IMG/VR virus record: IMGVR_UViG_3300028569_000030
Span: 15,100 to 79,099 of that record
Length of the DNA stretch: 64,000 nucleotides
Direction: 5' to 3' (one strand)
DNA from: a virus
The notes beneath the pieces are model-generated. The model was not told the DNA's origin. It ran no database searches and saw only the letters and a list, made by a program, of their open reading frames with translations. Of this stretch, positions 6,785-64,000 are shown piece after piece. How positions within the stretch are numbered: the first letter of the stretch is position 1; every line of letters begins with the position of its first letter. The translations under genes and the position numbers were made by a program.

Positions 6785-7783
6785 ATGAAAGATAAATTGG
6801 GCTTTGACACGACGGATGCTAACACCATCCTTGACAGTGACAGCGTTGGGGCATTTGTACGTGCCGGAGACGACGGTACGCTCATTGGACACGTTAGTGA
6901 TGCATTAAAGGTAAACTTTAGTAACACTACTATCGGAGTAACTGCTACAGATTTAGACATCAGAGACCTCGTTTTCGCTACGGATAAGGTTGATGTTTCT
7001 GGCTCAACTAACATTGGGCTAGACGCTGCTACATTAGCTGCTTTAGAATCAATCACTGTACAAAACGGTGCTGGAGCTGCTGCTGTTAACATTCAAGACG
7101 GTGGTAACTCAATTACTGTTGATGGTACTGTAGAACTTGGTGCTACAACTTTAGCTGCTTTAGAAAGCATTACTGTTGTTGCTACTGACTTTGATATTAG
7201 AGACTTAAGTCATTCGCAAGATTCAATTAAGATTGGTGATGGTACTGACTTCTTAGCAATCAATGCTGATGGTAGTATTAATGTTAATGCCGATATTTCA
7301 GTAGTTAACGGACATGAGAAAGCTGAAGATGCTGCTCACTCTTCTGGAGACATCGGTTCATACATGTTAGGGGTAAGACAGGACGTACTAGCTTCTAGTA
7401 CAAGTGCTGATGGAGATTATGCTTCATTCAAAATGTCTGCTGCTGGTGCATTGTATGTTAACTTAGCAGAATCTAGTGCTACTATCGAAGTATCTGATGC
7501 TGCTTTAGCAAATACTGCTATAATATCTAAGGCTTTAGTTTTAGGCGTTGCTGACACTGCTCAAGCTGTTGTTACTTCACCTTTAGCTGATAGAAAATAC
7601 CTAAGCATATACAACAACGATAATAGAAAAATGTTTATCGGGGGTTCTGGTGTAACTGCTGCTAACGGATTTCCTATCTCTCCAGGTTCTTATATGGAAC
7701 TTAGAGCTGGTGTATCTTCTGCTGTGTTCTTTGTTGGATCTACAGGAGAAACTGCTGCTATTAGAACTTTAGAGCTTTCTTAA
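6785..7783 (+). CDS. Fibre/decoration protein with internal repeats
   Basis: Repeats ATD(L/F)DIRDL x2 and TLAALESITV x2; GCT/ACT/GGT-biased codons; followed by terminator. Confidence 0.6.
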   Translation: MKDKLGFDTTDANTILDSDSVGAFVRAGDDGTLIGHVSDALKVNFSNTTIGVTATDLDIRDLVFATDKVDVSGSTNIGLDAATLAALESITVQNGAGAAAVNIQDGGNSITVDGTVELGATTLAALESITVVATDFDIRDLSHSQDSIKIGDGTDFLAINADGSINVNADISVVNGHEKAEDAAHSSGDIGSYMLGVRQDVLASSTSADGDYASFKMSAAGALYVNLAESSATIEVSDAALANTAIISKALVLGVADTAQAVVTSPLADRKYLSIYNNDNRKMFIGGSGVTAANGFPISPGSYMELRAGVSSAVFFVGSTGETAAIRTLELS

Positions 7784-7798
7784 TTTAAATACTGACGG

Positions 7799-7825
7799 GG
7801 GGAGGGAGAAATCCCTCCTCTTTTA
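7799..7825 (+). terminator. Rho-independent terminator
   Basis: GGGGAGGGA-GAAA-TCCCTCCTC stem with GNRA loop followed by TTTTA. Confidence 0.75.
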
Positions 7826-7854
7826 TTGACTCAGTATTATTCATAGTATATTAT
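7826..7854 (+). promoter_or_regulatory. sigma70-type promoter
   Basis: TTGACT-N17-TATTAT immediately after terminator, upstream of ORF 7875. Confidence 0.55.
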
Positions 7855-7874
7855 ATAATCAGAGGATTGACTAT

Positions 7875-8099
7875 ATGGGAAATAATTTTACGGAAGACGA
7901 TAAGAAAAAATTAGTAGATTTCTTAAATGCAGTAGCAAATAAAGCATCATTCAAAGATATGAATGTACAAGACATAATAAACTTCTTTAAGTTACTATCG
8001 CACATGCAAACTGTATTATTGCCAAAAATAGACGCAAATATTTTAGAGGTTCTACGAGTAGTAGAAACAAAACCAGAATCTGAAAAGAAGAGTGAGTAA
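7875..8099 (+). CDS. Hypothetical protein
   Basis: GAGGA RBS; TAATG coupling to next ORF. Confidence 0.6.
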   Translation: MGNNFTEDDKKKLVDFLNAVANKASFKDMNVQDIINFFKLLSHMQTVLLPKIDANILEVLRVVETKPESEKKSE

Positions 8100-8407
8100 T
8101 GGCTTTTCAATTACTTGATGGTCCGTCAAAACAAGATAGAGTGGCAGTAACTACCGCCACCGTAAAAGAATTAAAAGTCGGAGCTTCTGCTTTAGCGGAA
8201 AGACAAGTAATTACAATTCAGCCCACAGATGGTAATATATGGGTATATTTTGGAGATGGAACTACTCCATCTGCAGCTACCGTCTCCACAAAAGGATTTA
8301 AGCATGTTAAAAATGCTAAAGAATCTTACGAAGCTGGAGAAAGACAACAAGTGTTTATAGTGGCAGAAACAGGTACCGTCAATGTTACTTTTGTAGAGAG
8401 GGCATAG
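8099..8407 (+). CDS. Small beta-sandwich virion protein
   Basis: Resembles C-terminal domain of 6785 (R..I.I......IWVYFG...V....GF). Confidence 0.55.
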   Translation: MAFQLLDGPSKQDRVAVTTATVKELKVGASALAERQVITIQPTDGNIWVYFGDGTTPSAATVSTKGFKHVKNAKESYEAGERQQVFIVAETGTVNVTFVERA

Positions 8408-28999: not shown

Positions 29000-29195
29000 T
29001 AGTTCTCCGTATTAAATCACGTTCTAAACATAGCTTTAGAAGAGTTTTATTGGTATATCCCATGTTTTTAAGCTGAGTGTAGCAAATGCTTTTGAATGGT
29101 TCTTGTTGGTTAAATAAGCCGTCTAATAATCTATCTATTCTATCCATTAGATCTCCTAGTAAATCCAGTCTATCAGCTATTTGATATATGGTCAA
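28944..29195 (-). CDS. Hypothetical protein
   Basis: Packed ORF overlapping dut start. Confidence 0.4.
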   Translation of the reverse strand: MTIYQIADRLDLLGDLMDRIDRLLDGLFNQQEPFKSICYTQLKNMGYTNKTLLKLCLERDLIRRTNGTKNKKNTSRRNNSKLQ

Positions 29196-29503
29196 TCATC
29201 ATTCTCGGTATATTTTTTATCATTATATGCATAGTAACTAGGATCGTTTACGTATTCCTTTTTTCTTATTTTTTTTACCTCAGATGGACTACATACGAGT
29301 AATCTATATCCAAAATCTATGGTAATTACAGGTATTTTTTTTCCTCTGTATTTTTGCAATTCTTTTTTGCAAATTATCCCTACGTCAAATTGACGAACAT
29401 CAGAATCTTTATATTTATCAGTATATATCCTTATGTACGTACCTTTTCCTGGAGTTATAAATAATATAAACCATTCTATTAACATCTGTAAATACTTTTT
29501 CAT
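29192..29503 (-). CDS. Hypothetical protein
   Basis: Start reassigned to MKKYLQ just after upstream stop. Confidence 0.45.
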   Translation of the reverse strand: MKKYLQMLIEWFILFITPGKGTYIRIYTDKYKDSDVRQFDVGIICKKELQKYRGKKIPVITIDFGYRLLVCSPSEVKKIRKKEYVNDPSYYAYNDKKYTENDD

Positions 29504-29504
29504 T

Positions 29505-32811: not shown

Positions 32812-35800
32812 TTAATGAGCGTCTTTTAAGTTAGTTCCTATAACTGCTGGAGCTTTTAGTGCGATAGATAGTCTGTAGTTGTTTTCCATAATGTCTTGAA
32901 CAATCTGTCTACATTCTTCTGCCTTAGATTTAGGAGCATCTATAACCAATTGATCGTGGATATTTAAAATAACTAATGCATCTATACTTCTTTTTTTGAA
33001 CTCTCTATTAATCTGTATTGCTGCCATATTTACTATGCTAGCAGCCAGTCCTTGTATTTGTACGTTCTTAGCGTTATTTAGCCCGTTTTTGTAATCTTTG
33101 TACCATCCCTCAACTATCTCTGGCTCATACTTTTTCTTTAGTGCATTTTTGTATTTATAATCTAGAAGCTTATCACCATGTATCCTATACAATTCTTTAA
33201 CTGCTGGAAGATGTCGTATTCTTCCTGTTTCTATTTTTATATATCCATTGGCTTTAACAAAATACTCTGATTTTTTCATCCATTCTTTTAGCTTAGGAAA
33301 TCCATTTAAGTAACCATTGATAAGAACCTGGGCTTCTTCTGTAGTTACGTTTAGAGTTTTACCTAGAGCATACGCGCCCATTCCATACGGGACCCCAAGA
33401 CTGTAAGCTTTTGAAAACGATCTTTTTGGTTTATTTACTTTTCCTAAATAATTAGGGGCGTTTTTATCAGCACTAACATCTTTTAATTTTTCCGTGGCTA
33501 TAGCAATTGTAGAATAAAAGTCATATCCTTTTCTAAAAATATCTCGTAGCCCTTCGTCTCCAGAAACGTGAGAAAAGCAATTATGAACTCTTATGTTATC
33601 GCATATAAACTCTTCTACTCCGTCTACCGTAATATCTACCATGTCTCGCTGTTCTTTTTTATTTACTTCCAAAACTATAGCATCTGGAGATTTTAACTTT
33701 CCAATTTTTGATTTTGTAAATATTTTTTTTCTTTCACAAGCAATAAAATTGTATAACTTATAATCTACTAGCTTATTAATACTAATAGCTGTAAATCTAA
33801 TTTGGTACACTTTATGAACACCTTTGTGAGCTTTACCTATTCTGCCATCTAGTCCTAGAGTATTACCTAAACTACAAATGTCAGATGCTAATTTTGCAGA
33901 TTTAGTTGATATAGATAACTCACTCTTTTTTTGATTAAAAGTTCCGTCGGTATCTATAAGTCCCGCTAAAAAAGACAGTCTATTAGCTATACTAGATGTC
34001 ATTATATAATCTGGTATATGAAATTTTTTACTCCTATCATCCATCATATCAAAAGTTTGTTTAAATATATCCACCAACCAAGAATCATGGCATACGCAGG
34101 ACTCCATTCCATAGGTTCTACGATCCAAGTAGTCTTTTGGTTTTGCCCCAAAAGATTCCATTATTTCTTTAAATTTAGTAGTAACCATATCAGCTTTTAG
34201 TCCGCATATGCCTACATACTTAGAGGTTGTCGTACATGCAACTCCGTCTCCCAAAAAAGCACCAAGCATCCAACATAATTCTGCAGATAGTGGTAAATAT
34301 GAGAACGGTTTATTTGCTCCCTTTAGATATACATTTAGTTTATTGGAATTATTTTGAATTACATTAGTGTTAAATTTACACTCTTCTAGAATGTCTCCTG
34401 CAACAATGTCCTCCGCTTTTTTCCAACCAGTTCCATTTACATAAATTTTATGGTCGGGAGAGCATCTCACTACTCCTTTTTTAGTAATTATTTCTAGCAT
34501 GTCTTTTTTTGAATTCCACTTATTAACCAGTTTCTTCCAACCATGAACAGTATTAATATAGTCTCCTACTTCTACTTTAGATATTTCTAAAATTCCTTTA
34601 TCTTTTATTTCTACTTTTGAATCTATACATACACAATGAGGCTCTAAAGCTTCATAGTCATTATCTATAAACACTCGTCCTTCATCAGCTATAAAAAATT
34701 CCCTAATTACATTATTATACTTTAGAACAATCTCATCCAACTCTCCAGTTTCTTTTGGTCTAGGTAATTGTTGCAAGTTAGAAGAGTATCTACCGGAGAT
34801 AGTTCTGTGTTGCTGAAAGTTAGGATAAAAGTATCCATTCTCTGATTCATCTAAAAACCTATCAATATAGGTGCCTTTTATCTTTATTAATGAATTATAG
34901 TTACTTAGGTCTCCGGCCCATTTAATGTTTAATACTTTAAACAAATGATCTATCATATCATCATTAAATTGGGCATTACCTTTATCCGTAGTACTTAGTG
35001 GCTTAATTTTCATACACTTAAATACTAAGTCTGCCATTTGTTTTTTAGAGAATATATTTATCCTATTAGTTCCATCTTTTTCGGATAATCTCTGCGCTAT
35101 TTCTAGATGATGATTATGCTCTAAGTCTACGTTATTGATAAAATAGTCTCTAACTATATCAGTTTCTATAAGTAATATAGATTTTTCAGTTAGTGAGTAC
35201 TTTCCATTCTTAGTTTTTGTAAGGTATTTTCCACAATCAAAGTACTCAATAACTTCCTGAGAAAAAGACCCAGATCTTGTTTGTGGGTAATCTACAATAA
35301 GATTTTCATTTTTCCAATTTCTAACATCTTCGTTTGATTCTATAGCTGTAACTATTCTATCTTCTAGCATTGCTAGATCGCTCTCAATATTCGCTTTCGT
35401 TTTTAAAATAAGCGGTATGTCTAACTTTATTGAGTTATTTTCCATAGGAATAGTCACTTCTTTATATAGAGGCATAACTTCCTTGTCATAGAAAAATTCT
35501 TCTAGTTTATCCTTAGATAGACGATCTCTAACTAGGATAGCTAGTCTTAGCGTTAAATCAGCATCAGATGCAGCATACTTTCCCATTACTTCTAAATCAG
35601 CTTTATACATTTCATAATTTGTTTTAGTTATGCTACCGCCATTCATTTTTATATTATGCTTAAGTTCTATTTGCTCCTCATTAGCATCCGATTCTACATC
35701 TAATCCTATTTTTGATTGGTATTGCTTGGCAACTTCTTTCAAAGCAAAATTACCCTCTTCCTCTACAGTGTGTTTCATTAACATAATATCGGCAAGCAAC

Positions 35801-36150
35801 GAGTCTATCAAATCAACTTTTAAATCATTTTTAACAATGCTTATATCGTAAGCAGCGTTCCACATTAACAATTCTTTTTTAGATAAAAGATGCAGAAGCT
35901 CTAATATGTCCGAATCAGGAAGAACTTGCTCTAGCTTTTCTGTTTCTTTATTCCAAGAAAATCTAGGGGCATAAAATGATTCTCCAGGACTTCCGCAAAA
36001 AGAAATACCAATAACCTGAGACTTTCTTACATTTAGTCCAGTAGTCTCTGTATCAAATCCTAAGAATAGACTTTTTTCTATGTGAAGTTTTGCTTGTGTT
36101 AACTGTGCTTGTGTGGTGATTATAGTGTAGTTTTTATTAGTATGTGTCAT
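32812..36150 (-). CDS. polA: DNA polymerase family A with 3'-5' exonuclease and intein
   Basis: FDTETTGL exonuclease, TISGRYSSNLQQLP, DYEALE motif A, R...K...LG..YG motif B, IHDQ motif C. Confidence 0.95.
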   Translation of the reverse strand: MTHTNKNYTIITTQAQLTQAKLHIEKSLFLGFDTETTGLNVRKSQVIGISFCGSPGESFYAPRFSWNKETEKLEQVLPDSDILELLHLLSKKELLMWNAAYDISIVKNDLKVDLIDSLLADIMLMKHTVEEEGNFALKEVAKQYQSKIGLDVESDANEEQIELKHNIKMNGGSITKTNYEMYKADLEVMGKYAASDADLTLRLAILVRDRLSKDKLEEFFYDKEVMPLYKEVTIPMENNSIKLDIPLILKTKANIESDLAMLEDRIVTAIESNEDVRNWKNENLIVDYPQTRSGSFSQEVIEYFDCGKYLTKTKNGKYSLTEKSILLIETDIVRDYFINNVDLEHNHHLEIAQRLSEKDGTNRINIFSKKQMADLVFKCMKIKPLSTTDKGNAQFNDDMIDHLFKVLNIKWAGDLSNYNSLIKIKGTYIDRFLDESENGYFYPNFQQHRTISGRYSSNLQQLPRPKETGELDEIVLKYNNVIREFFIADEGRVFIDNDYEALEPHCVCIDSKVEIKDKGILEISKVEVGDYINTVHGWKKLVNKWNSKKDMLEIITKKGVVRCSPDHKIYVNGTGWKKAEDIVAGDILEECKFNTNVIQNNSNKLNVYLKGANKPFSYLPLSAELCWMLGAFLGDGVACTTTSKYVGICGLKADMVTTKFKEIMESFGAKPKDYLDRRTYGMESCVCHDSWLVDIFKQTFDMMDDRSKKFHIPDYIMTSSIANRLSFLAGLIDTDGTFNQKKSELSISTKSAKLASDICSLGNTLGLDGRIGKAHKGVHKVYQIRFTAISINKLVDYKLYNFIACERKKIFTKSKIGKLKSPDAIVLEVNKKEQRDMVDITVDGVEEFICDNIRVHNCFSHVSGDEGLRDIFRKGYDFYSTIAIATEKLKDVSADKNAPNYLGKVNKPKRSFSKAYSLGVPYGMGAYALGKTLNVTTEEAQVLINGYLNGFPKLKEWMKKSEYFVKANGYIKIETGRIRHLPAVKELYRIHGDKLLDYKYKNALKKKYEPEIVEGWYKDYKNGLNNAKNVQIQGLAASIVNMAAIQINREFKKRSIDALVILNIHDQLVIDAPKSKAEECRQIVQDIMENNYRLSIALKAPAVIGTNLKDAH
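33580..34635 (-). mobile_element. Intein (352 aa) with LAGLIDADG homing endonuclease in PolA motif A
   Basis: EPH|CVCIDS...CSPDHKI...LGAFLGDG...LAGLIDTDG...VHN|CFSH; splicing restores DYEALEPHCFSHVSGD. Confidence 0.92.
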
Positions 36151-36443: not shown

Positions 36444-39400
36444 TTAGAATGAGCTGTCGTCTTCCATTTTTGCACGATTCTTCGAATCTCGCAAGTCTTT
36501 TAATTCCGATGCTTCAATAGCTTCTAGCGGCCTAATAGTTCCAGTTAGTCCATCCCAAGCTAAATCGCAAGAAAACAAAGCTCCACTTCTATTTTTTACA
36601 CAATCAATAGAAAAGTATCTGTCATTTTCTGGAGTTCTTGAGCTGTATCCTGGCCTATGTACAGTTAACATAGCAGTTAAAGCTTGTGCTATAGACGAAC
36701 TACCTTTAGCGGCATTATAAGACGTTATTGGCTCGTCAATAGATCCTAGAGCTTTAGACGGCTGTAACATAACAACTACGGCTTTATTAAGATTAATAGC
36801 TATTTCTCGCAGTCCTTGAATAGCCTCCATGCTAGATTGAGTAGGGTCAGAAAATCTAGACTGTACTAGCTCTAAATAGTCAACTATGACTAATCTGATG
36901 TTAACTCCTAGCATCTTTTCTCTTTCGATAATTGTGTTCTTTATTTCTTCAATTGTTTGCCCTGTTTTAAACACAAAGCTGCACTTTTGATAATTATCTT
37001 TTAGAATAGTTCTGAACTGATCTTTCTTTTGCTCATCTCTATTTTTGAAGAATTCGTACAAAGAATTTCTATTTAGTCTAGTGTGTCTTTGTATTAATTT
37101 TTGATATACATCAAACTGGGACATATCATAACTAAAGAACATGCTATGTTCGCCCATTTTAGAGGTATTATTTATCATAGTAATAGCGGTAGAAGTATTA
37201 TGCGTTACTGTAAAGTCTCCCAATAAGTACCTATGATTTCCATCTAACTCAAACCCAAAGTAATCTCCTACTTCTAATTTTTCTACCTCTATTTCAGTTA
37301 AATCCTGGTATCTTTGTCTGTCTTGCGCTAAGGCTTTTTTTCTACTCACTCTATTAGGTATGTCGTTTAAATTATCTCCGCTAATGTACAGTCTAAACGC
37401 TTCTGAGTACCCTTCGTACCATTTTCCCCTAGTAAAAGATTTATAGTGTTTCATTTCTCTTGATTTAGTGGCTTTAAATCCTAAACTGCGTATTAAAAAC
37501 AAAACCTGATCTGTCGTTTTTTCATTAGATTGGGAAAATTCATACGTTCCTTTTTTATGGTCATAGTATCCATCAGTATCTAATAGACCAGCCAACAACT
37601 TAAGCCTGTCTTCTCTATTAGAAGTAAGATATTCGTTAGGAATATATTTTCCATTCATTAGATTTTTTTGTTTTAAAAAAGTTCTAAAAATGTTATTTTC
37701 CCCAGTTATAGAAATAGTATACACCTTATCTGATCCCGATTCATACTGCTTTAAATTAGCTTTTAGGTTTTTAGAATCTGCCCATCCTTGAATATCTTCA
37801 ATTAGCTCTACATCTTGCTTTGCTATAGTAAACTGTGGTTTACTAGTTGTGCCATCTCCTATCCATACACCTAAGATGTACGGATCTATTTCTAAATGTT
37901 TTTTAGAAAACTCTACTGGAACTTTATATCCCTTTACTCTTTTTTTAAAATCTACACCCTTATTTAAGTATTCCAATAACGGAATGTCAAAAACCTGGCC
38001 ATATTTATACTGATCTTTTGTAGCACTACTTCCTTTAAGACTTAGTATGTGGCTTTCATTAATAACGTAATCATCTCCGTTTTTTTGGTTAATTTTATAC
38101 AAAGTTTCTCGTCCTCTAGCTAACGATAAAACTGTTCTAGGAGAAGAGTCATCCCCCATTAATAAATCACCAACACAAACGTCTTCTACGTTTTTTATAG
38201 TTCCATCAAACATTAAAATTTTAGTGCCTTTTCCATGGCACTTGCCCGAGCCAGGGCTCCCTAAAATTCCATATAATCTTCCTACTTGAACTTGCAATTT
38301 TTCATCTAATTGAGGTATTCCAAACTTTAGAGTGTTCTTATCAATGTCTTCCGCATACGATATAAAAGAATCAAATCCTTCGTTAATAGTAACTACTTCT
38401 TTTGAGCTGGTAGCTTTAATGGATTCTGGAATCAATATACTTAATGATTTTAGTAATGGATCATCAGCAGTTGAATAAGTCCCACCTAGCCAATTTGGCC
38501 CAAATACTTGGGATATAATATTATTATATATAAGTTCTTTCGAAAACTTATCAGATCCTGTTCTTTTTGATTGCAGCTCAGCAGCGGCTTTTAAAAAATG
38601 ATATGTGTGAGTTTCGTTAAACCCTTGATTCTTTAGTGTACTAGCCAATATCATCAATGCGTGATTTCTAATGCCACTCTCAAAATAGCCTAAAGAAATT
38701 AAGTATTTTTCAGGAGTAAAGAATTTTGGCTTTATTGACCAATCTACTTCTGATAAATCTAAGCTTAGTGGAACTTTATTTTTCATAGTCTTAACTATTG
38801 TTGGGGTTTTATTCTTTAGTTCTACAATCCGTTCTGGTAGATTTACAACTTCCCATGCGTCTTTTATATCAGAATACTCAAAAGTAGTTTTAGCTAGTTC
38901 CATAATTCCATCTATAGTAAAGTCCGTTAGTTCTGAAATAGATAAAGGAATTTTGTATAGTCCAGACTTTTGGTGCTTAGTTAACGGTAGTCTTAGTATC
39001 CTAGTTGCATTGTATATTACAGGGTCAGCAGTAGTAAGTCCCTCAGCTAGGCTCATACAAATATTTTTTAATTGATTTGGAGTTAATTGTTGGTCTAGGA
39101 TTTCTACTGAAATATCGAATCCTTTATTCCCACTAAAAAAAATTCGTATGCTACTAGCAGGAAATCCAGAGTCTATTAGTCTGTTAACTAAAGATATTGC
39201 GTCTTTTTGAGCTAATCCTAAGTCATCTTCTGAATCAAAATCCCATACTAATTTTTTACAAACAACGTCAGTTATTCCAGCCACGCTACCTTTGTCTTTA
39301 AAAATGGCTTTATGGGAGTCGTTAAACTGATATATAGATACGTAGGCTTCCTTATCTAAAGAAATTCTGTTATATATATCAGACAAATCTCCGTCATTAA

Positions 39401-39458
39401 ATGGAACTAATGTGCCTTTATCGGCTAAACTAGTGCATAATCTAACATAATCAGTCAT
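36444..39458 (-). CDS. Primase-helicase: AEP/PrimPol-like N-terminus, PriCT-like region, DnaB-like SF4 helicase, with intein
   Basis: WDFDS, FSGNKG, RILRLP.T.H.KSG; GIRNHAL; GSPGSGK|T, VIVDYLEL, CVKNRSG; start at ATG after GGAGG. Confidence 0.88.
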   Translation of the reverse strand: MTDYVRLCTSLADKGTLVPFNDGDLSDIYNRISLDKEAYVSIYQFNDSHKAIFKDKGSVAGITDVVCKKLVWDFDSEDDLGLAQKDAISLVNRLIDSGFPASSIRIFFSGNKGFDISVEILDQQLTPNQLKNICMSLAEGLTTADPVIYNATRILRLPLTKHQKSGLYKIPLSISELTDFTIDGIMELAKTTFEYSDIKDAWEVVNLPERIVELKNKTPTIVKTMKNKVPLSLDLSEVDWSIKPKFFTPEKYLISLGYFESGIRNHALMILASTLKNQGFNETHTYHFLKAAAELQSKRTGSDKFSKELIYNNIISQVFGPNWLGGTYSTADDPLLKSLSILIPESIKATSSKEVVTINEGFDSFISYAEDIDKNTLKFGIPQLDEKLQVQVGRLYGILGSPGSGKCHGKGTKILMFDGTIKNVEDVCVGDLLMGDDSSPRTVLSLARGRETLYKINQKNGDDYVINESHILSLKGSSATKDQYKYGQVFDIPLLEYLNKGVDFKKRVKGYKVPVEFSKKHLEIDPYILGVWIGDGTTSKPQFTIAKQDVELIEDIQGWADSKNLKANLKQYESGSDKVYTISITGENNIFRTFLKQKNLMNGKYIPNEYLTSNREDRLKLLAGLLDTDGYYDHKKGTYEFSQSNEKTTDQVLFLIRSLGFKATKSREMKHYKSFTRGKWYEGYSEAFRLYISGDNLNDIPNRVSRKKALAQDRQRYQDLTEIEVEKLEVGDYFGFELDGNHRYLLGDFTVTHNTSTAITMINNTSKMGEHSMFFSYDMSQFDVYQKLIQRHTRLNRNSLYEFFKNRDEQKKDQFRTILKDNYQKCSFVFKTGQTIEEIKNTIIEREKMLGVNIRLVIVDYLELVQSRFSDPTQSSMEAIQGLREIAINLNKAVVVMLQPSKALGSIDEPITSYNAAKGSSSIAQALTAMLTVHRPGYSSRTPENDRYFSIDCVKNRSGALFSCDLAWDGLTGTIRPLEAIEASELKDLRDSKNRAKMEDDSSF
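37197..38240 (-). mobile_element. Intein (348 aa) with LAGLIDADG endonuclease in helicase Walker A
   Basis: GSGK|CHGKGTKILMFDG...NESHIL...LGVWIGDG...LAGLLDTDG...VTHN|TST. Confidence 0.93.
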
Positions 39459-39535
39459 CACATCATCCTCCAAAATAAAGGCAGGATTGAAAATCAATCC
39501 TGCTGTAGAGATTCTAGAATTAGTAAAGGGGATTA

Positions 39536-45297: not shown

Positions 45298-46338
45298 TTA
45301 TTTTAAGACATTTCCTATTGGTCTTATGTAATTCATTATATACTTATCATGTCTTCCAAGTAAATAGGGAAATATTGCATCTGAGTGAACTATTCCAGTA
45401 TTTTTACTTACGAGGAATATTCCAATAGCTTTTTTCCCTTCAGGAGTAAGTTCTGTAGTGGGTAAGATCTTTAAATCATTTTGTATTTCTGAAATTACTT
45501 TTTGATAGCTATGTTCTAGGGATTTTTTAATAGGCTCCCATTCATTTCTGAATTCCTCCGGTATTTGACACAAGTACTGGCTCTCAACTATACCAGACTT
45601 CATGCATTCCCACAAAGAAAGTGGACTAAGGTGGGATAATAGCTTAGCAATTTTCAAATACTCATCGCCTTTTATTTTGATCCTAAGTCCTGATTCAAAT
45701 CTAACTACCCACCCCTCTTTGTCTTTTGGTATAGTTTTTTTTAACTTTACACAGTCTTCAATTGTCCCACCGTAAGAATGGGCAATTGGAAAACAAGTAG
45801 CAACTTCTAGTGGGTGCATATCCCTATAGTGGATATCAATTGCGCCAAGTAGTACTAGCTCTTCTTTGTTTTCGTAATTTACAATAATTTTATTACTGGG
45901 ATAAATAATCTCAACTAAGTAAGTAGTTCCAGGAGTTAAAATGCTAGTATTGTATTTTTTTAAAAGTTCTGCACCTTTGATTGCTTGATCTGACGTAAAA
46001 GCTCCTCTAGTAGCAACATTCCATTTATTATTGTAATAATAGACTATTCCCAAAGATCCATCCATTTTTTCCCACACGGAGTATAACTCATCAGGCAAAT
46101 TATCCAAGGTAACATTTTCCATTTCTCCAAGATTAAAAAACTTGGGAAACGGTCTAGCAATAATCTCCCCAGTATCTTTTTCAAAGATAATACCTCGAGA
46201 TCTTATAGTATATTCATCCCACGCTCTTTCAAACGTGCATTTGTCTGTGTAGTTATATAGAATAAGACCGTCTTTCTCTACTGATCTAAGCAAGCCTAGT
46301 TTTACTCTATCATTGTATGGAACTAGTGATGGGTGCAT
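45298..46338 (-). CDS. RNA ligase 1 (T4 Rnl1-like)
   Basis: SRGIIF, RPFPKFFN, EKMDGSLG, TRGAF.S.QA, EGWVV, KIKG.EY. Confidence 0.92.
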   Translation of the reverse strand: MHPSLVPYNDRVKLGLLRSVEKDGLILYNYTDKCTFERAWDEYTIRSRGIIFEKDTGEIIARPFPKFFNLGEMENVTLDNLPDELYSVWEKMDGSLGIVYYYNNKWNVATRGAFTSDQAIKGAELLKKYNTSILTPGTTYLVEIIYPSNKIIVNYENKEELVLLGAIDIHYRDMHPLEVATCFPIAHSYGGTIEDCVKLKKTIPKDKEGWVVRFESGLRIKIKGDEYLKIAKLLSHLSPLSLWECMKSGIVESQYLCQIPEEFRNEWEPIKKSLEHSYQKVISEIQNDLKILPTTELTPEGKKAIGIFLVSKNTGIVHSDAIFPYLLGRHDKYIMNYIRPIGNVLK

Positions 46339-46722: not shown

Positions 46723-47586
46723 TTAAAAGTCTCCTGGGGCACATTGAAGGCAGACAATACCTCGCCTTCTCCATAGGTCAACCACTTGTTTACGGTCGTC
46801 TACAGCGAATAAGACATCATATCTCGTATGAATTTCAAAATCAAGTAAAATTTCTTTGATTATATAATCTTGTCTAAAATCATTACTAGATCTCATAAAT
46901 AAATCAGCATGTTTTCTATTAACATGGTGTTGTAGCCATGATTTAGTCTGAGGCATATGGCTATCGGGCCTTCCAGAACAGAAAACAATATTCCACGGCA
47001 TGTTATTAACTAGTTCTAAGCACCATAGATTAGGTACATCTGATACTAGTTCATCTAAAAAGCTTTTCCAATTCTTTTTTCCTTCTGTTCTTATGTGGTG
47101 TAGTCTATGATCAATGTTACATAAAGTCCCATCTAAATCCACTATGATACATCCTTGCTTCTCTATATTATTGTTGTAATATTCAAAATCAGTATCACCC
47201 TCGTCTTCGGTAGGACGTTCAAATTTACTAAAAAAAGTACGTAGTGCAGCTTTAGCGGAGATTTCATCTTTTATAGTAGGATGGTTCTCTCGTTTTAAGC
47301 ACCTTTCTAAGCATATATCATATGGAACAAACAAAGTTTTTACTACAATCTCATATCCTGCTTCTTTTGCTGGCACGATGTATCTAGCTCTTTGTTCTTT
47401 GTTAAAATTCATCCTATCCACGACTATATCTAAACCTTTTGATAGAGCTTCTGCAAAAATAAGCTTATGACCTTCTTTACCTTGATCATCTTGACTAACA
47501 CGCACAAATCCTTCACAGTTGGAAGCTAATTGGCTTTTTCCTGAGCCAGGAGGTCCTACTAAAACTGTAAGCCTTCTATTTGACAT
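46723..47586 (-). CDS. pseT: Polynucleotide 5'-kinase / 3'-phosphatase (T4 PseT-like)
   Basis: GPPGSGKS kinase plus HAD DLDGT, SGR, MR...D.R.D...K, DDR..VV..WR. Confidence 0.92.
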   Translation of the reverse strand: MSNRRLTVLVGPPGSGKSQLASNCEGFVRVSQDDQGKEGHKLIFAEALSKGLDIVVDRMNFNKEQRARYIVPAKEAGYEIVVKTLFVPYDICLERCLKRENHPTIKDEISAKAALRTFFSKFERPTEDEGDTDFEYYNNNIEKQGCIIVDLDGTLCNIDHRLHHIRTEGKKNWKSFLDELVSDVPNLWCLELVNNMPWNIVFCSGRPDSHMPQTKSWLQHHVNRKHADLFMRSSNDFRQDYIIKEILLDFEIHTRYDVLFAVDDRKQVVDLWRRRGIVCLQCAPGDF

Positions 47587-53744: not shown

Positions 53745-54941
53745 CTAATGTGTAAATGCTGAAGCTGGTATTACGGCTTCTGCCGTGTTTGGTCCAGATA
53801 GTTTAAGTTCAAGGGCAATTTGTGTTACAGGACCTTGATAGTATACTACATTTATTTTATTTTGACCACGGTTTAAGTTACCCGTTTTAGATACCGTAGC
53901 TGGAGCGTGTAGTCCTTGATTTTCAATTACTAGATAATCATCTTCAATTGAAAGTCTAGAACCATCATCACTAAGAAGTTTAAGAGTATGTTGTCCTGAT
54001 GTTTTGATATTCAAGTATCCATTACAATCAAGAGCATATCCTTCAATTCCTACTAGATCTTGAAGATCCTTTGGCATACCAGGAAATCCATTAACAGCTT
54101 GACTATCAGGAACGCTTAGATTATTAAGTACAAAAGTTCCGACAATCGGATTATTAGCAAGAGCTTCTGGAAGTGAAGTTTTTTTGTCCCAAGATTTAAG
54201 ATCGTGTAAATTGCATAAAAGTCCTGGCTGAATTGCAGATTCACCATCTTTACCATCTAAACCATCTCTACCCTGCTCTCCTTGAGGTCCAACAGATCCT
54301 TGAGGTCCAATTGCTCCGTTAGCAATAAATACTGGAGAACTGTTTCCGCAAGTTATATTAGCTCCACCTTCGGTAGCAATTGCTGAACATGATGTTCCTT
54401 TCTTTCCATCTTTTCCATCTTGACCATCATAGATATATGAGAAATTTTTACCACATTGAATTTTAACTTTATTTTTTTCACGGATACTTTTGCAAGATTT
54501 TCCATCTTTCCCATTTTCGCCATCTTTTCCGTTACTGATTAGTATAGGAGATTGATCTGGACACGCCAACCATACTCCAGTAAATGGAACAGATTCGTAT
54601 GCTTGACAACTAACTCCAGCAATACCTTGAGGACCTTGAATGCCGGCAATACCTTCAATACCTTGTTCTCCTTTATCACCTTGAGCTCCTTCAATTCCTT
54701 GCTGACCTTGCTCTCCGTTATAAACAATTGAAAAACTTCCATCTGTACATGAAATTCTAGCACCAACGATATTTTCTTCTTCGTCAAATTCTGAAGCTAC
54801 CGAACAAGATGTTCCGTCCTTGCCGTCTTTACCATCTTTTCCTGCATCTCCATTAGTTCCTTTGTAAACATCTACAGTATGTTTTTTAGCACACCCATTT
54901 GCAAATAATGCAATTAGTAATAATAGCCCTAATTTTTTCAT
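53745..54941 (-). CDS. Lipoprotein with interrupted collagen-like repeats and C-terminal PA14 domain
   Basis: MKKLGLLLLIALFANG|C lipobox; Gly-X-Y tracts; GYLNI...G..T..L.SDDGSRL.I....VIEN.GLH...I.V.YYQG. Confidence 0.8.
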   Translation of the reverse strand: MKKLGLLLLIALFANGCAKKHTVDVYKGTNGDAGKDGKDGKDGTSCSVASEFDEEENIVGARISCTDGSFSIVYNGEQGQQGIEGAQGDKGEQGIEGIAGIQGPQGIAGVSCQAYESVPFTGVWLACPDQSPILISNGKDGENGKDGKSCKSIREKNKVKIQCGKNFSYIYDGQDGKDGKKGTSCSAIATEGGANITCGNSSPVFIANGAIGPQGSVGPQGEQGRDGLDGKDGESAIQPGLLCNLHDLKSWDKKTSLPEALANNPIVGTFVLNNLSVPDSQAVNGFPGMPKDLQDLVGIEGYALDCNGYLNIKTSGQHTLKLLSDDGSRLSIEDDYLVIENQGLHAPATVSKTGNLNRGQNKINVVYYQGPVTQIALELKLSGPNTAEAVIPASAFTH

Positions 54942-54957
54942 TAATCCTCCTAAAATG

Positions 54958-55203
54958 TTAAACATATAGATCTTCTAATTCTGATGTAATATCAGAAATA
55001 AAATCTTCGTAAAGTTGGGTTTGTTCAATTTCGTAAATATTAGCATCCATTCCCTTTTGGAATAGATATTCATGGACATCATCTCTAGCTACAGAACTTT
55101 TGTTATTAATTAAATCTGATATAAAACTATCTACGGATATGAAATCGACTAGGACATTATTAACTCTACAAAGATTAGCAAAGTGCGATACTAAGTTTGT
55201 CAT
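54958..55203 (-). CDS. Hypothetical acidic protein
   Basis: AGGAG RBS. Confidence 0.55.
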   Translation of the reverse strand: MTNLVSHFANLCRVNNVLVDFISVDSFISDLINNKSSVARDDVHEYLFQKGMDANIYEIEQTQLYEDFISDITSELEDLYV

Positions 55204-55534: not shown

Positions 55535-55556
55535 ATGTTTTTCTCCTTATTAGATA

Positions 55557-56468
55557 TTAAGGCCTCTTTGATCCTATATCAAGATATTTCTTTATATAAA
55601 ATATCATTGGGTGTCTTTCCTTGTACTTACCTAATCTATCGAAGTATGCAATTGCTAATACTTCTGGGTATCTCTGCCCATATTTTTTGGCAAGTCTAGA
55701 GTTAAATATGTTAATAGCGAGTTTAAGTATGTATCCTTTATATCCAGCTAATCCTGTTCGTTTTAGAGCAATATTTCTAAACCAAGCCATAAGAATAGTA
55801 CCGCCCCTAGATCCGTCGGTAATAGTCGATCTAGTTGATAATACCATGGCAATAGCAAGCCATAATACGCTAAATAATGAGGCTGATTGATTTGCCACTA
55901 TCTTATAGAATGCAACATCTCTTGGCTGTCTAAAGCTTGATATTGCTGTTATATCGCCATCATGTCTAAAGTCTACAGAAGCGGTGTCTTGAGGGTTTTC
56001 TTGATAGTCTTTTAAATAAGCTTTTAATTTAATGATCGTACTTATTGGCGACTTTAAGAAAGCTTTAAAAAAGCTGCTTCCTGGATTAAGATCGTTATAC
56101 TGCCATCCATTTTCTTTTCCGTACTGTATCATGTTATTGAGGTGTCCAATAAGTTCTGGAGCAGCAGCTACCATCATTGTTATACCGTTTTGTTCATCAT
56201 GTGATATACCATGCCAAGGTATGTCAAAGCGATCTTGATATACAGGAGGATGTCTCCTATATAATCCTGGAAATACTCTGCATTGGGTGAGTATTGATGC
56301 CATGAATTCTTTTTGTGAATATGTCAGTTCATTCAATTCTGCAAGCAAAAGAGCCGCTTCTCCTGTAAAAAGAAGTCCGTTGTCTGTAATGCCTTTTTCT
56401 ATGTGACTTGGCTTATCGGACACTCGGTCAATAGGGTCTAGAAACGGTGCGAAGTTTTTAAAGCTCAT
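55557..56468 (-). CDS. Hypothetical protein (helical, possibly enzymatic)
   Basis: 303 aa; DNGLLFTGE, PGLYRRHP, SHDE motifs. Confidence 0.6.
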   Translation of the reverse strand: MSFKNFAPFLDPIDRVSDKPSHIEKGITDNGLLFTGEAALLLAELNELTYSQKEFMASILTQCRVFPGLYRRHPPVYQDRFDIPWHGISHDEQNGITMMVAAAPELIGHLNNMIQYGKENGWQYNDLNPGSSFFKAFLKSPISTIIKLKAYLKDYQENPQDTASVDFRHDGDITAISSFRQPRDVAFYKIVANQSASLFSVLWLAIAMVLSTRSTITDGSRGGTILMAWFRNIALKRTGLAGYKGYILKLAINIFNSRLAKKYGQRYPEVLAIAYFDRLGKYKERHPMIFYIKKYLDIGSKRP

Positions 56469-58952: not shown

Positions 58953-59633
58953 TTATAGTGTTGCAGCCATTTTTAAAAATTGTAGATTTAAATCTTCTTG
59001 GTTTTTTCTAGCATCAGCATAAGCAGCAGCATAAGCAGCATAAGCAGCATAAGCAGCATCAGCAGCATAAGCAACAGCAGCATAAGCAGCATCAGCAGCA
59101 TCAGCATCAGCAGCAGCAGCAGCATCAGCAGTATAAGCAGCATAAGCATCAGCAGCATCAGCATAAGCATCAGCATCAGCAGCAGCAGCAGCAGCATCAG
59201 CAGCATAAGCAGCAGCATAAGCAGCATAAGCAGCATCAGCAGCAGCAGCAGCAGCATCAGCAGCATAAGCAGCAGCATAAGCAGCATAAGCAGCATCTCT
59301 ATGCATTATAATTTTCTCTTTTTGAATCTTTGTAATATCTTCAAAGTTTTTAACTTTGATTAAGTACCTAATACAATCTCCAACTCTTTTATCTTCTGGA
59401 TATTTACTTTCAAATATATTTAAAACACTTTCTGCACATAATAGTCCAAAATGACAAAGTTGGTTTTTATTTAATACCTGTTTAGCTACCCAAATTTTAT
59501 CGTTATAAGATATGTGTTCTAAATCTATAAAATCATCAAAAGTAAATTCAAGATTTGAATAATGTTGTAAATAATTGTCTAGTCGATCTTTACATGGGTT
59601 TAAAGCCGTAATCAATTGTGTTGTTATTTTCAT
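58953..59633 (-). CDS. Imm5-like domain protein with Ala/Tyr/Asp low-complexity tract
   Basis: CAE.VL.IFE.KYP.D.R....I followed by ~96 codons of A/Y/D; AGGAG RBS. Confidence 0.65.
   Translation of the reverse strand: MKITTQLITALNPCKDRLDNYLQHYSNLEFTFDDFIDLEHISYNDKIWVAKQVLNKNQLCHFGLLCAESVLNIFESKYPEDKRVGDCIRYLIKVKNFEDITKIQKEKIIMHRDAAYAAYAAAYAADAAAAAADAAYAAYAAAYAADAAAAAADADAYADAADAYAAYTADAAAAADADAADAAYAAVAYAADAAYAAYAAYAAAYADARKNQEDLNLQFLKMAATL
59008..59297. repeat. Coding trinucleotide microsatellite (GCT/TAT/GAT on - strand) with a 60-bp duplication
   Basis: GCA/GCATAA/GCATCA runs; DAAYAAYAAAYAADAAAAAA occurs twice in tandem. Confidence 0.9.
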
Positions 59634-59645
59634 AATACTCCTTTA

Positions 59646-59888
59646 TTAATTTAAATGAATATGGTTACTATGGTTAGTACCTATTTGGCGATTGTAGGCT
59701 AAAGCTGATCGTTCTAGCTCTAGAATTAAACTAATCATGTCGTCTATGTCCCTAACCTTGGCCTCATCTAGTCCGGATACTGCCACTTTGTTATCATTAG
59801 ATGATGCCTCAATGCCAAGTCTAGTTAGATTAGATGCTACTAATCCTGCCCAATTATAATCACTGAATGTAAAGATGGATATTCTCAT
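59646..59888 (-). CDS. Hypothetical protein (first gene behind leftward promoter)
   Basis: AGGAGG RBS before MRISIF. Confidence 0.55.
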   Translation of the reverse strand: MRISIFTFSDYNWAGLVASNLTRLGIEASSNDNKVAVSGLDEAKVRDIDDMISLILELERSALAYNRQIGTNHSNHIHLN

Positions 59889-59904: not shown

Positions 59905-59932
59905 AACATATCACACAAATATTATTTTGCAA
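59905..59932 (-). promoter_or_regulatory. Leftward sigma70-type promoter
   Basis: TTGCAA-N16-TATGTT with TGn extension; -10 box ends 16 nt upstream of the 59888 ATG. Confidence 0.5.
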
Positions 59933-59955
59933 TATAAATCGCTATGTGATATAAT
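59927..59955 (+). promoter_or_regulatory. Rightward near-consensus sigma70 promoter
   Basis: TTGCAA-N17-TATAAT with TGn extended -10; no + strand ORF downstream. Confidence 0.75.
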
Positions 59956-59960
59956 TAACA

Positions 59961-60275
59961 TACCCTTGGACCGTGAAAAATAGGTGCAAGTCCTACGTTC
60001 ATTTGAACGACAAGCTTCTGAGTAGGCACTATGCTGAAAGGTTACGATGAAACAGCTTGATAGGGGAAGTCCTGATTGAACAGGGCTAACTCTCTGACCT
60101 AAGTCGGAGAGCGGAAAGCCAGGGTAGTAAGTCCGAACACTGTCGTAAGGTGGGACAAGACAAAGGTGTGTGAAAGCCATACCACATTTAGAGATAGCAT
60201 CTCACAGGGCTTAATGGGAATTTTAAAGTACCATTACTCCGAGAATCACCAATACCTTGGATTATTATAAGGGTA
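59961..60275 (+). ncRNA. Putative ~315-nt highly structured non-coding RNA of unrecognised class
   Basis: Starts at predicted TSS. TACCCTT(59961-67) pairs with AAGGGTA(60269-75); at least 8 internal helices, two T-loop-like hairpins, AGUA/GAA loop-E motif; GC-richer than flanks. Confidence 0.65.
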
Positions 60276-60455
60276 GGGGATAGATACTCGTATGCAAATT
60301 AATTCAAATAACAGGATAAAATATATGTTCTATTGCATATGTTTATCATTATTTTGAAAGTAGTTTTGGGAAATTGGAAAACCAGTATTTTTTGTTCTCT
60401 GTAAACATAGACCTTAAAAAGGTAAATGATTGTCTTTTCGTAAACCTTGGTCTTC

Positions 60456-60510
60456 CAAGTAGTTGATATTAGGATAGGATTTTATAAAGTCCATTGGTTT
60501 CAATGTGTTA
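60456..60510. promoter_or_regulatory. IHF-consensus sites
   Basis: TATCAACTACTTG (- strand, 60456-60468) matches WATCAANNNNTTR; TTTCAATGTGTTA (60498-60510) has 1 mismatch. Confidence 0.45.
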
Positions 60511-60594
60511 GAGTGGTAATATAGGGCAAAATACCATAGAATTGTGATGATGATAGCAAAACGAATCCAATGCATACTTAGCCCCATGATTGAG

Positions 60595-63862: not shown

Positions 63863-64000
63863 GTAGGGGGGGGAGGGGGTGCCCTTTATCTGCTGTAGTT
63901 TGGAGAAGTATACCCTCGCTACCAAATAATAGAACATATCTACAATACATCTACAATTCTCAGCTAGTCTCGGGCTACTCTTAGCGCGTACTCGGGCTAT

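Follow-up and report, generated by a model that had tools for sequence, protein, structure and literature searches.

Lambda OOP and P22 sar are phage cis-antisense RNAs directed against an operon, and in Bacillus subtilis the prophage type I antitoxin RNAs of the SR4/bsrG and RatA/txpA pairs are convergent with small hydrophobic-peptide genes. RNAs of this type are about 70-220 nt long, and their overlap with the target has been demonstrated. Here, we describe a candidate non-coding RNA (ncRNA) gene with a GC-rich core at positions 59961-60275 (+ strand) of a 64,000-nt stretch of viral DNA, called the window below, which comprises bases 15100-79099 of the 79,099-bp IMG/VR virus record IMGVR_UViG_3300028569_000030 from lake water. 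Like OOP, sar, SR4, and RatA, the candidate has a strong promoter directed against the surrounding transcription, lacks an open reading frame (ORF), and is convergent with a small membrane-peptide ORF (60414-60587). Unlike in these systems, its overlap with a target hinges on unproven read-through and unmapped transcript ends, the peptide gene lies in an operon and is itself doubtful, and there is no sequence similarity to the known RNAs.

In AT-rich genomes, a GC-rich intergenic region is a well-established sign of a structured ncRNA (PMC6429828, PMC8632094, PMC11109978). The candidate resembles the regions described by the Breaker laboratory in being a long GC-rich intergenic region of an AT-rich genome, but those were accepted only after covariation had been shown, whereas no homologue of the candidate was found. 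We nevertheless regard it as probably a real RNA, because an edge promoter, a lack of coding capacity, a GC island, a reversed GC skew, and a + strand folding excess in the first 150 nt all coincide. The fuller view, in which it is a stand-alone orphan phage ncRNA gene with a local effect, through antisense pairing or promoter competition, is advanced more tentatively, with slightly less than even confidence. The core idea of the original prediction, an unannotated RNA gene running against the early-gene flow, thus held up: the region folds better than shuffled sequences, the antisense ORF is neither conserved nor codon-typical, and no Rfam family claims it.

The core of 315 nt has a GC content of 47% in a genome of 34% GC and is flanked by DNA of 25-35% GC, and the GC skew turns from negative in the flanks to +0.21 in the core. 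The whole genome has no more than two non-coding islands with a GC content of at least 0.45, one of which is the core. It lies in a gene-free gap of about 500 nt (the antisense ORF discussed below being discounted), which is on a par with the largest gap in an arm of about 68 closely packed - strand genes (26.9-63.4 kb) and is the sole such gap with a GC-rich core. The other gene-free gap of similar size in this arm, about 505 nt at 29000-29504, is AT-rich (29% GC). The second non-coding GC island is found at genome positions 176-550 (GC 0.475), about 14.5 kb upstream of the window start; it shows no similarity in sequence to the candidate core, and two of its windows, at 201 (- strand, 300 nt) and 238 (+ strand, 152 nt), belong to the top folding outliers of the genome.

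As had been claimed, the + strand contains no credible ORF and the neighboring genes all lie on the - strand. From 59961 to about 60600, the + strand has ORFs of 30 and 34 aa only, and none of the micro-ORFs of 9-18 codons on this strand has a convincing ribosome-binding site. On the - strand, an open frame of 89 aa at 59911-60180 could in principle be one more small early protein gene, as it has the same strand as all its neighbors and ends 23 nt short of the start codon of the next gene. We judge it to be non-coding on the basis of its codon usage, the missing Shine-Dalgarno sequence, and the lack of a Pfam match. Its codon log-likelihood ratio (LLR) of -0.25 bits per codon lies below that of every plausible nearby gene and is exceeded by 84% of spurious open frames, which have a mean of 0.03; long genes reach 0.24-0.8 and small neighbors -0.08 to 0.8. 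In addition, the GC content at the second codon position is 0.48 as compared to 0.38 in real genes, Cys, Ser, and Pro are abundant in the translation, and the promoter DNA itself encodes the C-terminus. When 1.84 billion representatives were searched exhaustively with phmmer, the only matches were to two giant repeat proteins and involved just a 13-residue YPG.PLS.LGQ motif present in many repeats, and these matches appear to be repeat-amplified chance rather than true homologues. The orphan status of this ORF is not decisive, since the flanking real genes are orphans as well, but taken together these properties make a protein gene highly improbable.

The promoter is present exactly as originally described. 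It is of the sigma-70 type and occupies 59927-59955 (+ strand), with a -35 box TTGCAA (59927-32), a 17-nt spacer, and an extended -10 region TGaTATAAT (TATAAT at 59950-55). In a promoter scan, the site scored 10 of 12 matches plus the TG extension, with a predicted start at about 59961-63. Sites with a perfect -10 box, the TG extension, and at least four of six matches in the -35 box occur three times in the 79 kb, compared to 1.4 +/- 0.9 times in dinucleotide shuffles, and because about 1.4 such sites per genome are expected by chance, the promoter by itself is weak evidence. It is, however, unlikely by chance that such a promoter is positioned at the exact 5' edge of the GC island and points inward, which by our own estimate has a probability of about 1e-3. 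Sigma-70-like sites with a perfect TATAAT and at least four of six matches in the -35 box are scarcer in the genome than in dinucleotide shuffles (14 observed as compared to 23.5 +/- 5.2), which suggests selection against stray host-type promoters, and the sites that have been retained are therefore more likely to be used. TG-extended promoters of a similar kind are also found upstream of other - strand genes.

Folding of the RNA was assessed against shuffled sequences. On the + strand, the 315-nt unit has a predicted fold of -91.8 kcal/mol, corresponding to z-scores of -2.63 and -2.46 in two runs, whereas the - strand had a z-score of -1.65. The signal comes from the 5' domain (59961-60112, + strand), for which a z-score of -3.26 was obtained and none of 150 shuffles folded as well, as compared to a z-score of -1.1 on the - strand. 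In a composition-corrected scan of the genome with 152-nt windows, this domain ranked 14th of 4,156 on the + strand, with a slight advantage to the candidate as the grid had been set to begin at 59961; the antisense window ranked 735th. The 5' domain is the only part of the core that is a folding outlier at the genome level. The cluster of top folding outliers in the genome is elsewhere, on the + strand at genome positions 7701-8180 in the capsid gene region, outside the window.

When individual helices were evaluated by ensemble pair probabilities, with 0.75-1.0 taken as high, part of the proposed architecture was well supported. The group with high probabilities comprises the terminal helix P1 (59961-67/60269-75), CGTTC/GAACG, CAAGCT/AGCTTG, GGTGTG/CATACC, GAGAT/ATCTC, the local AAGTCCTG/CAGGGCT hairpin, and the 9-bp hairpin CTCTCTGAC/GTCGGAGAG. 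Six robust local hairpins can be delineated on the + strand, at 59996-60009, 60011-60059, 60068-60087, 60090-60111, 60165-60183, and 60191-60203, and two long-range helices that were absent from the earlier list (60119-26/60253-60 and 60128-34/60207-13) are well supported, too. All stems of that list do occur in the sequence, but TAGG/CCTA (0.02), GGCA/TGCT (0.2), GTCC..CAC/GTG.GGAC (0.2), and TAATGG/CCATTA (0.17) are poorly supported. One of the two hairpins described as T-loop-like therefore stands (GGTGTG/CATACC, p = 0.9) and the other, TAGG/CCTA, does not, and the GGCA/TGCT stem that frames the proposed loop-E motif is likewise thermodynamically disfavored. The idea of two alternative conformers also failed, as both proposed alternative long-range pairings had an ensemble probability of 0. 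Five well-supported helices contain one G-U pair each, which becomes an A-C mismatch on the - strand. As had been noted before, these wobbles fit a function of the + strand, but they also follow from the G>C composition.

The original prediction favored a tertiary-folded RNA such as a ribozyme, a protein decoy, or a replication primer. A large RNA that adopts a defined tertiary fold and acts in trans, whether as a ribozyme or other catalytic RNA, as a scaffold, or as a protein decoy or anti-defence sponge, has to be considered, as the evidence from promoter, composition, and strand-specific folding applies equally to it. Inside the core, AAGTCC occurs three times and ACAGGGCT and GAAAGCCA twice each, AAGTCCTG can be paired either locally or with CAGGGCTT 130 nt away in a P4-like geometry, and the supported GGTGTG/CATACC hairpin carries a 7-nt loop of the type U....A. 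The phage moreover has an Rnl1-type RNA ligase 1 and a polynucleotide kinase (45298-46338 and 46723-47586, both - strand) in a window in which ARAGORN detected no tRNA or tmRNA gene; in T4, these two enzymes form the tRNA-repair pair. The candidate could be the first and to date only member of a new class of mid-sized phage RNAs with a tertiary structure, with a terminal helix, repeated AAGUCC/CAGGGCU/GAAAGCC modules, and a switch between local and P4-like pairing, which would act in trans as a ribozyme, as a decoy for a protein involved in host defence or RNA processing, or as a substrate of the phage RNA ligase and kinase. However, one of the two T-loop hairpins, the loop-E stem, and both long-range alternatives failed in the ensemble analysis, no homologue that could show covariation was found, and the motif recurrences are near what is expected by chance for 315 nt of biased composition. 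We therefore consider a large tertiary-folded RNA rather improbable, and the more specific new-class proposal improbable as well.

Comparison with known families gave no support for such a fold either. Rfam 15 was searched with its 4,227 covariance models, including GOLLD, ROOL, HEARO, OLE, raiA, 6S, tmRNA, pRNA, T-box, and the small ribozymes. In the whole window, no match reached the gathering threshold, and within the region itself, a 2.5-kb search gave none at E <= 10. The top match of a 476-nt search was engA, with 14.4 bits as compared to a threshold of 46. The candidate shares with GOLLD (RF01998) and ROOL (RF03087) that it is phage-borne, environmental and from a lake, GC-enriched relative to its genome, and composed of multiple helices (PMC12286853). 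Unlike these RNAs, it is 315-400 nt rather than about 600-800 nt long, has no adjacent tRNA genes, belongs to no family of homologues, and matches neither covariance model.

As several short motifs recall known RNAs, we also searched the phage genome with single-family models, which is about 25 times more permissive and gave matches in control genomes. The candidate is reminiscent of RNase P RNA in that GGGGAAGTCC...CACAGGGCTTA resembles the P4/CR-I/CR-V segments GAGGAAAGTCC...ACAGAAnnnGGCTTA, with strands able to form a long-range helix, and in that its 5' and 3' ends pair like P1. However, three hairpins precede the P4-like strand of the candidate, where RNase P has only P3, the helix order is incompatible by inspection, the long-range helix has a probability of 0, and neither RF00010 nor RF00011 matched the phage genome at E <= 10. 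A cobalamin riboswitch (RF00174) was rejected, as there was no match at E <= 10 and the motifs are in the wrong order, the B12-box-like AAGCCAGG being located 5' of the P5-like hairpin; a downstream + strand gene to be regulated is missing, though the phage does have a B12-dependent ribonucleotide reductase (RNR). For a group I intron (RF00028), no match was found at E <= 10 anywhere in the genome and no + strand gene is interrupted; this negative is weak, as the model also misses a candidate intron region of the capsid gene (genome positions 7701-8180) and its sensitivity in this phage is uncertain. A T-box-like AAGGTGGGAC is present without a model match or a downstream gene, and the hammerhead look-alike CUGAUUGA has one extra base and no model match. 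The 7-bp inverted ends could suggest a miniature inverted-repeat transposable element, but there is no target-site duplication and no second copy in the genome. An attP site or host-derived DNA was likewise rejected, with no match in genome contigs. Potential base-pairing targets elsewhere in the phage genome amounted to chance 11-mers.

A collection of homologues from related phage contigs had been suggested as a test of covariation, and we carried out the search by several routes, all of which were negative. Neither blastn of the island against 50,697 phage records nor a paralogue search of the own genome detected a homologue, and the same was true of nhmmer, covariance model R1, translated-pattern, and motif scans in collections of viral, metagenome, and genome sequences. 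The translated-pattern scans of metagenome, viral, and genome contigs, for which the antisense frame served as the probe, were empty, and two gapped-motif scans returned match numbers at chance level, none of which was confirmed by nhmmer or model R1. Seven related contigs (L002-L008) that share the neighboring genes for a 226-aa and a 303-aa protein have no similarity to the island and diverge completely around it. The 226-aa protein itself (58953-59633, - strand) has a long low-complexity repeat of Ala, Tyr, and Asp that causes a local peak of 53% GC and a spurious isrG match in Rfam, and in L004 and L005, its N-terminal domain has at least seven paralogues in tandem.

The nearest complete relative, G001, has a genome of 81.7 kb and an exonuclease with 74% amino-acid identity. 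Its leftward and rightward gene blocks are separated by 510 nt devoid of genes (55547-56058 of G001, corresponding to 15547-16058 of L012), with a near-consensus TTGACA-17-TAATAT promoter directed rightward. A 52-nt stretch of this early/late intergenic region matched the island reciprocally in nhmmer, with E values of 4.4 and 0.85. Covariance model R1 recovered only an 18-nt hairpin of 7.9 bits in G001, the intergenic region folds no better than shuffles (z-score of +0.28), and a motif derived from the shared stretch retrieved G001 itself along with unrelated sequences, three of which looked protein-coding. We judge the match to be due to chance.

As the region could also be non-functional DNA, namely a decayed remnant of GC-richer, horizontally acquired DNA in a hypervariable early region whose promoter is fortuitous or merely the mirror of a real leftward promoter, we weighed the findings that speak against an RNA gene. 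Homologues, which could show covariation or conservation, were not found by any route. Blastn against G001 gave nothing and the island is undetectable there, and in L003, which also has no island, the genes are tightly packed without a gap at the syntenic spot. For the flanking proteins, viral contigs contained no relatives, and in a set of 5.8 billion proteins they matched only themselves; as these genes are orphans too, the whole segment may be recently acquired DNA. The five lake-water sequencing runs that hold the stretch are all identical in sequence, and all are DNA runs, with no RNA run listed. The folding excess of the island is modest: the 3' half is not significant, with a z-score of -1.26 on the + strand (and -0.37 on the - strand), and 300-nt windows over the island are not genome outliers. 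The originally proposed closed unit of about 315 nt is affected as well. The complementarity of TACCCTT and AAGGGTA at its ends is real, and P1 is well supported within the 315 nt, but when the fold was extended by 85 nt to 60360, the closing helix was lost and the 5' end re-paired from 60269-75 to 60121-26. The closed unit is thus not robust, because the partner of the 5' end changes with the chosen 3' end. In a stricter search, there was no terminator on either strand. Finally, the antisense or insulator mechanism outlined below is one that we purely infer.

The notion of non-functional DNA further gains from the fact that the 80-aa gene, the island, and the 57- and 114-aa genes are all unique to this phage, and from the weak coding scores that the neighboring small genes have, too. 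Yet it would have to attribute to accident that the edge promoter, the GC island, a G>C skew opposite to that of the flanks, and a folding excess on the + strand only coincide at one place. Moreover, phage genomes are compact and this gap is one of the two largest in the - strand arm, and no trace of a decayed gene was found. We consider non-functional DNA unlikely, while taking it seriously as a contender.

With respect to the layout, the preferred reading of a locally acting RNA gene is based on the two transcription units between which the island is situated. The downstream leftward unit begins with an 80-aa orphan gene (59646-59888, - strand) that is divergent from the RNA promoter and preceded by an AGGAGG ribosome-binding site. 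Its putative leftward promoter (59905-59932, - strand) shares the palindromic -35 box TTGCAA with the RNA promoter and continues with a 16-nt spacer and the -10 box TATGTT (59910-59905). The two -10 regions of these back-to-back promoters form an inverted repeat, ATATCACA/TGTGATAT. The upstream leftward unit ends with an ORF of 57 aa and one hydrophobic helix (60414-60587, - strand), which is convergent with the candidate RNA, has a weak coding score of -0.08, and has no significant PHROG match. Between this ORF and the core, a possible weak intrinsic terminator for the + strand may be placed at 60315-60357, with an AU-rich hairpin (60315-60347) followed by TTATTTTG. It was found in a relaxed scan with a dG of -10.2 and would result in an RNA of about 395 nt; the same scan also returned weak - strand candidates, one of which is within the island near 60165.

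From this arrangement, we infer the following course of events. Host sigma-70 RNA polymerase would initiate at about 59961 at the near-consensus extended -10 promoter and transcribe rightward across the GC-rich core, opposing the leftward early genes. The core would fold on the + strand into a series of stable hairpins, of which those of the 5' domain are predicted best, and this structure would confer stability on the RNA, whose end is probably near 60355. As the RNA and the 59888 operon have promoters with one palindromic -35 box in common, these should compete, with polymerase at one site keeping it off the other. The RNA would also be fully complementary to a leftward read-through transcript or 3' untranslated region of the upstream unit, and this transcript may thereby be insulated or down-regulated, either through antisense pairing or through polymerase collision.

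Alternatively, the act of transcription rather than the RNA could matter. ColE1 RNA II and the promoter-dependent origins of T7 and T4 are examples of transcription-primed replication, and with these the candidate has in common a promoter, a G-rich transcript, and AT-rich DNA downstream. In an analogous manner, a G-rich transcript could open or prime a replication origin via an R-loop in the AT-rich, palindromic segment 60276-60413 (27-31% GC). The skew of the transcribed strand, the G-run GGGTAGGGG (60271-79) at the junction of the island and 135 bp of AT-rich DNA, the palindromes I1 and I4 inside the AT-rich segment, and the phage-encoded PolA and DnaB-like helicase would all be compatible with this. 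However, neither iterons nor initiator-binding repeats are evident, there is no turning point of the cumulative skew at this place beyond a local blip, and such a model does not require the strand-specific structure excess of the 5' domain. We regard an R-loop origin as quite improbable and favor the locally acting RNA.

The genome that carries this locus belongs to a lytic-looking, uncultured freshwater phage of 79 kb. CheckV estimated the completeness of the record at 93%. The last approximately 135 bp are a copy of the first approximately 135 bp (window 63866-64000, genome 78965-79099, equal to genome 1-135), so that the record is essentially whole, with either a terminal repeat or a circular assembly; IMG/VR classifies it as 'linear'. 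The repeat begins at a G-run, the two copies of which are G7AG6 and G8AG5. The family A DNA polymerase (PolA; 32812-36150) and the DnaB-like helicase (36444-39497), both encoded on the - strand, each contain a LAGLIDADG intein, and the RNR mentioned above, which is of class II, is accompanied by ThyX. Collagen triple-helix repeats and a PA14 domain are combined in a protein (53745-54965, - strand) that is encoded within the early/DNA-metabolism arm, outside the structural genes.

The value of the candidate is limited by its being a singleton without a tie to a broader RNA class, and the main practical result is a negative one, as the T-loops, the loop E, and the two conformers fail thermodynamically. 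If the RNA is real, it would add a further phage early ncRNA of a known kind, albeit in the unusual layout of two back-to-back promoters on one -35 box. As such, it would offer a simple model for how adjacent early transcription units may be separated or how the switch to the DNA-metabolism genes may be timed.

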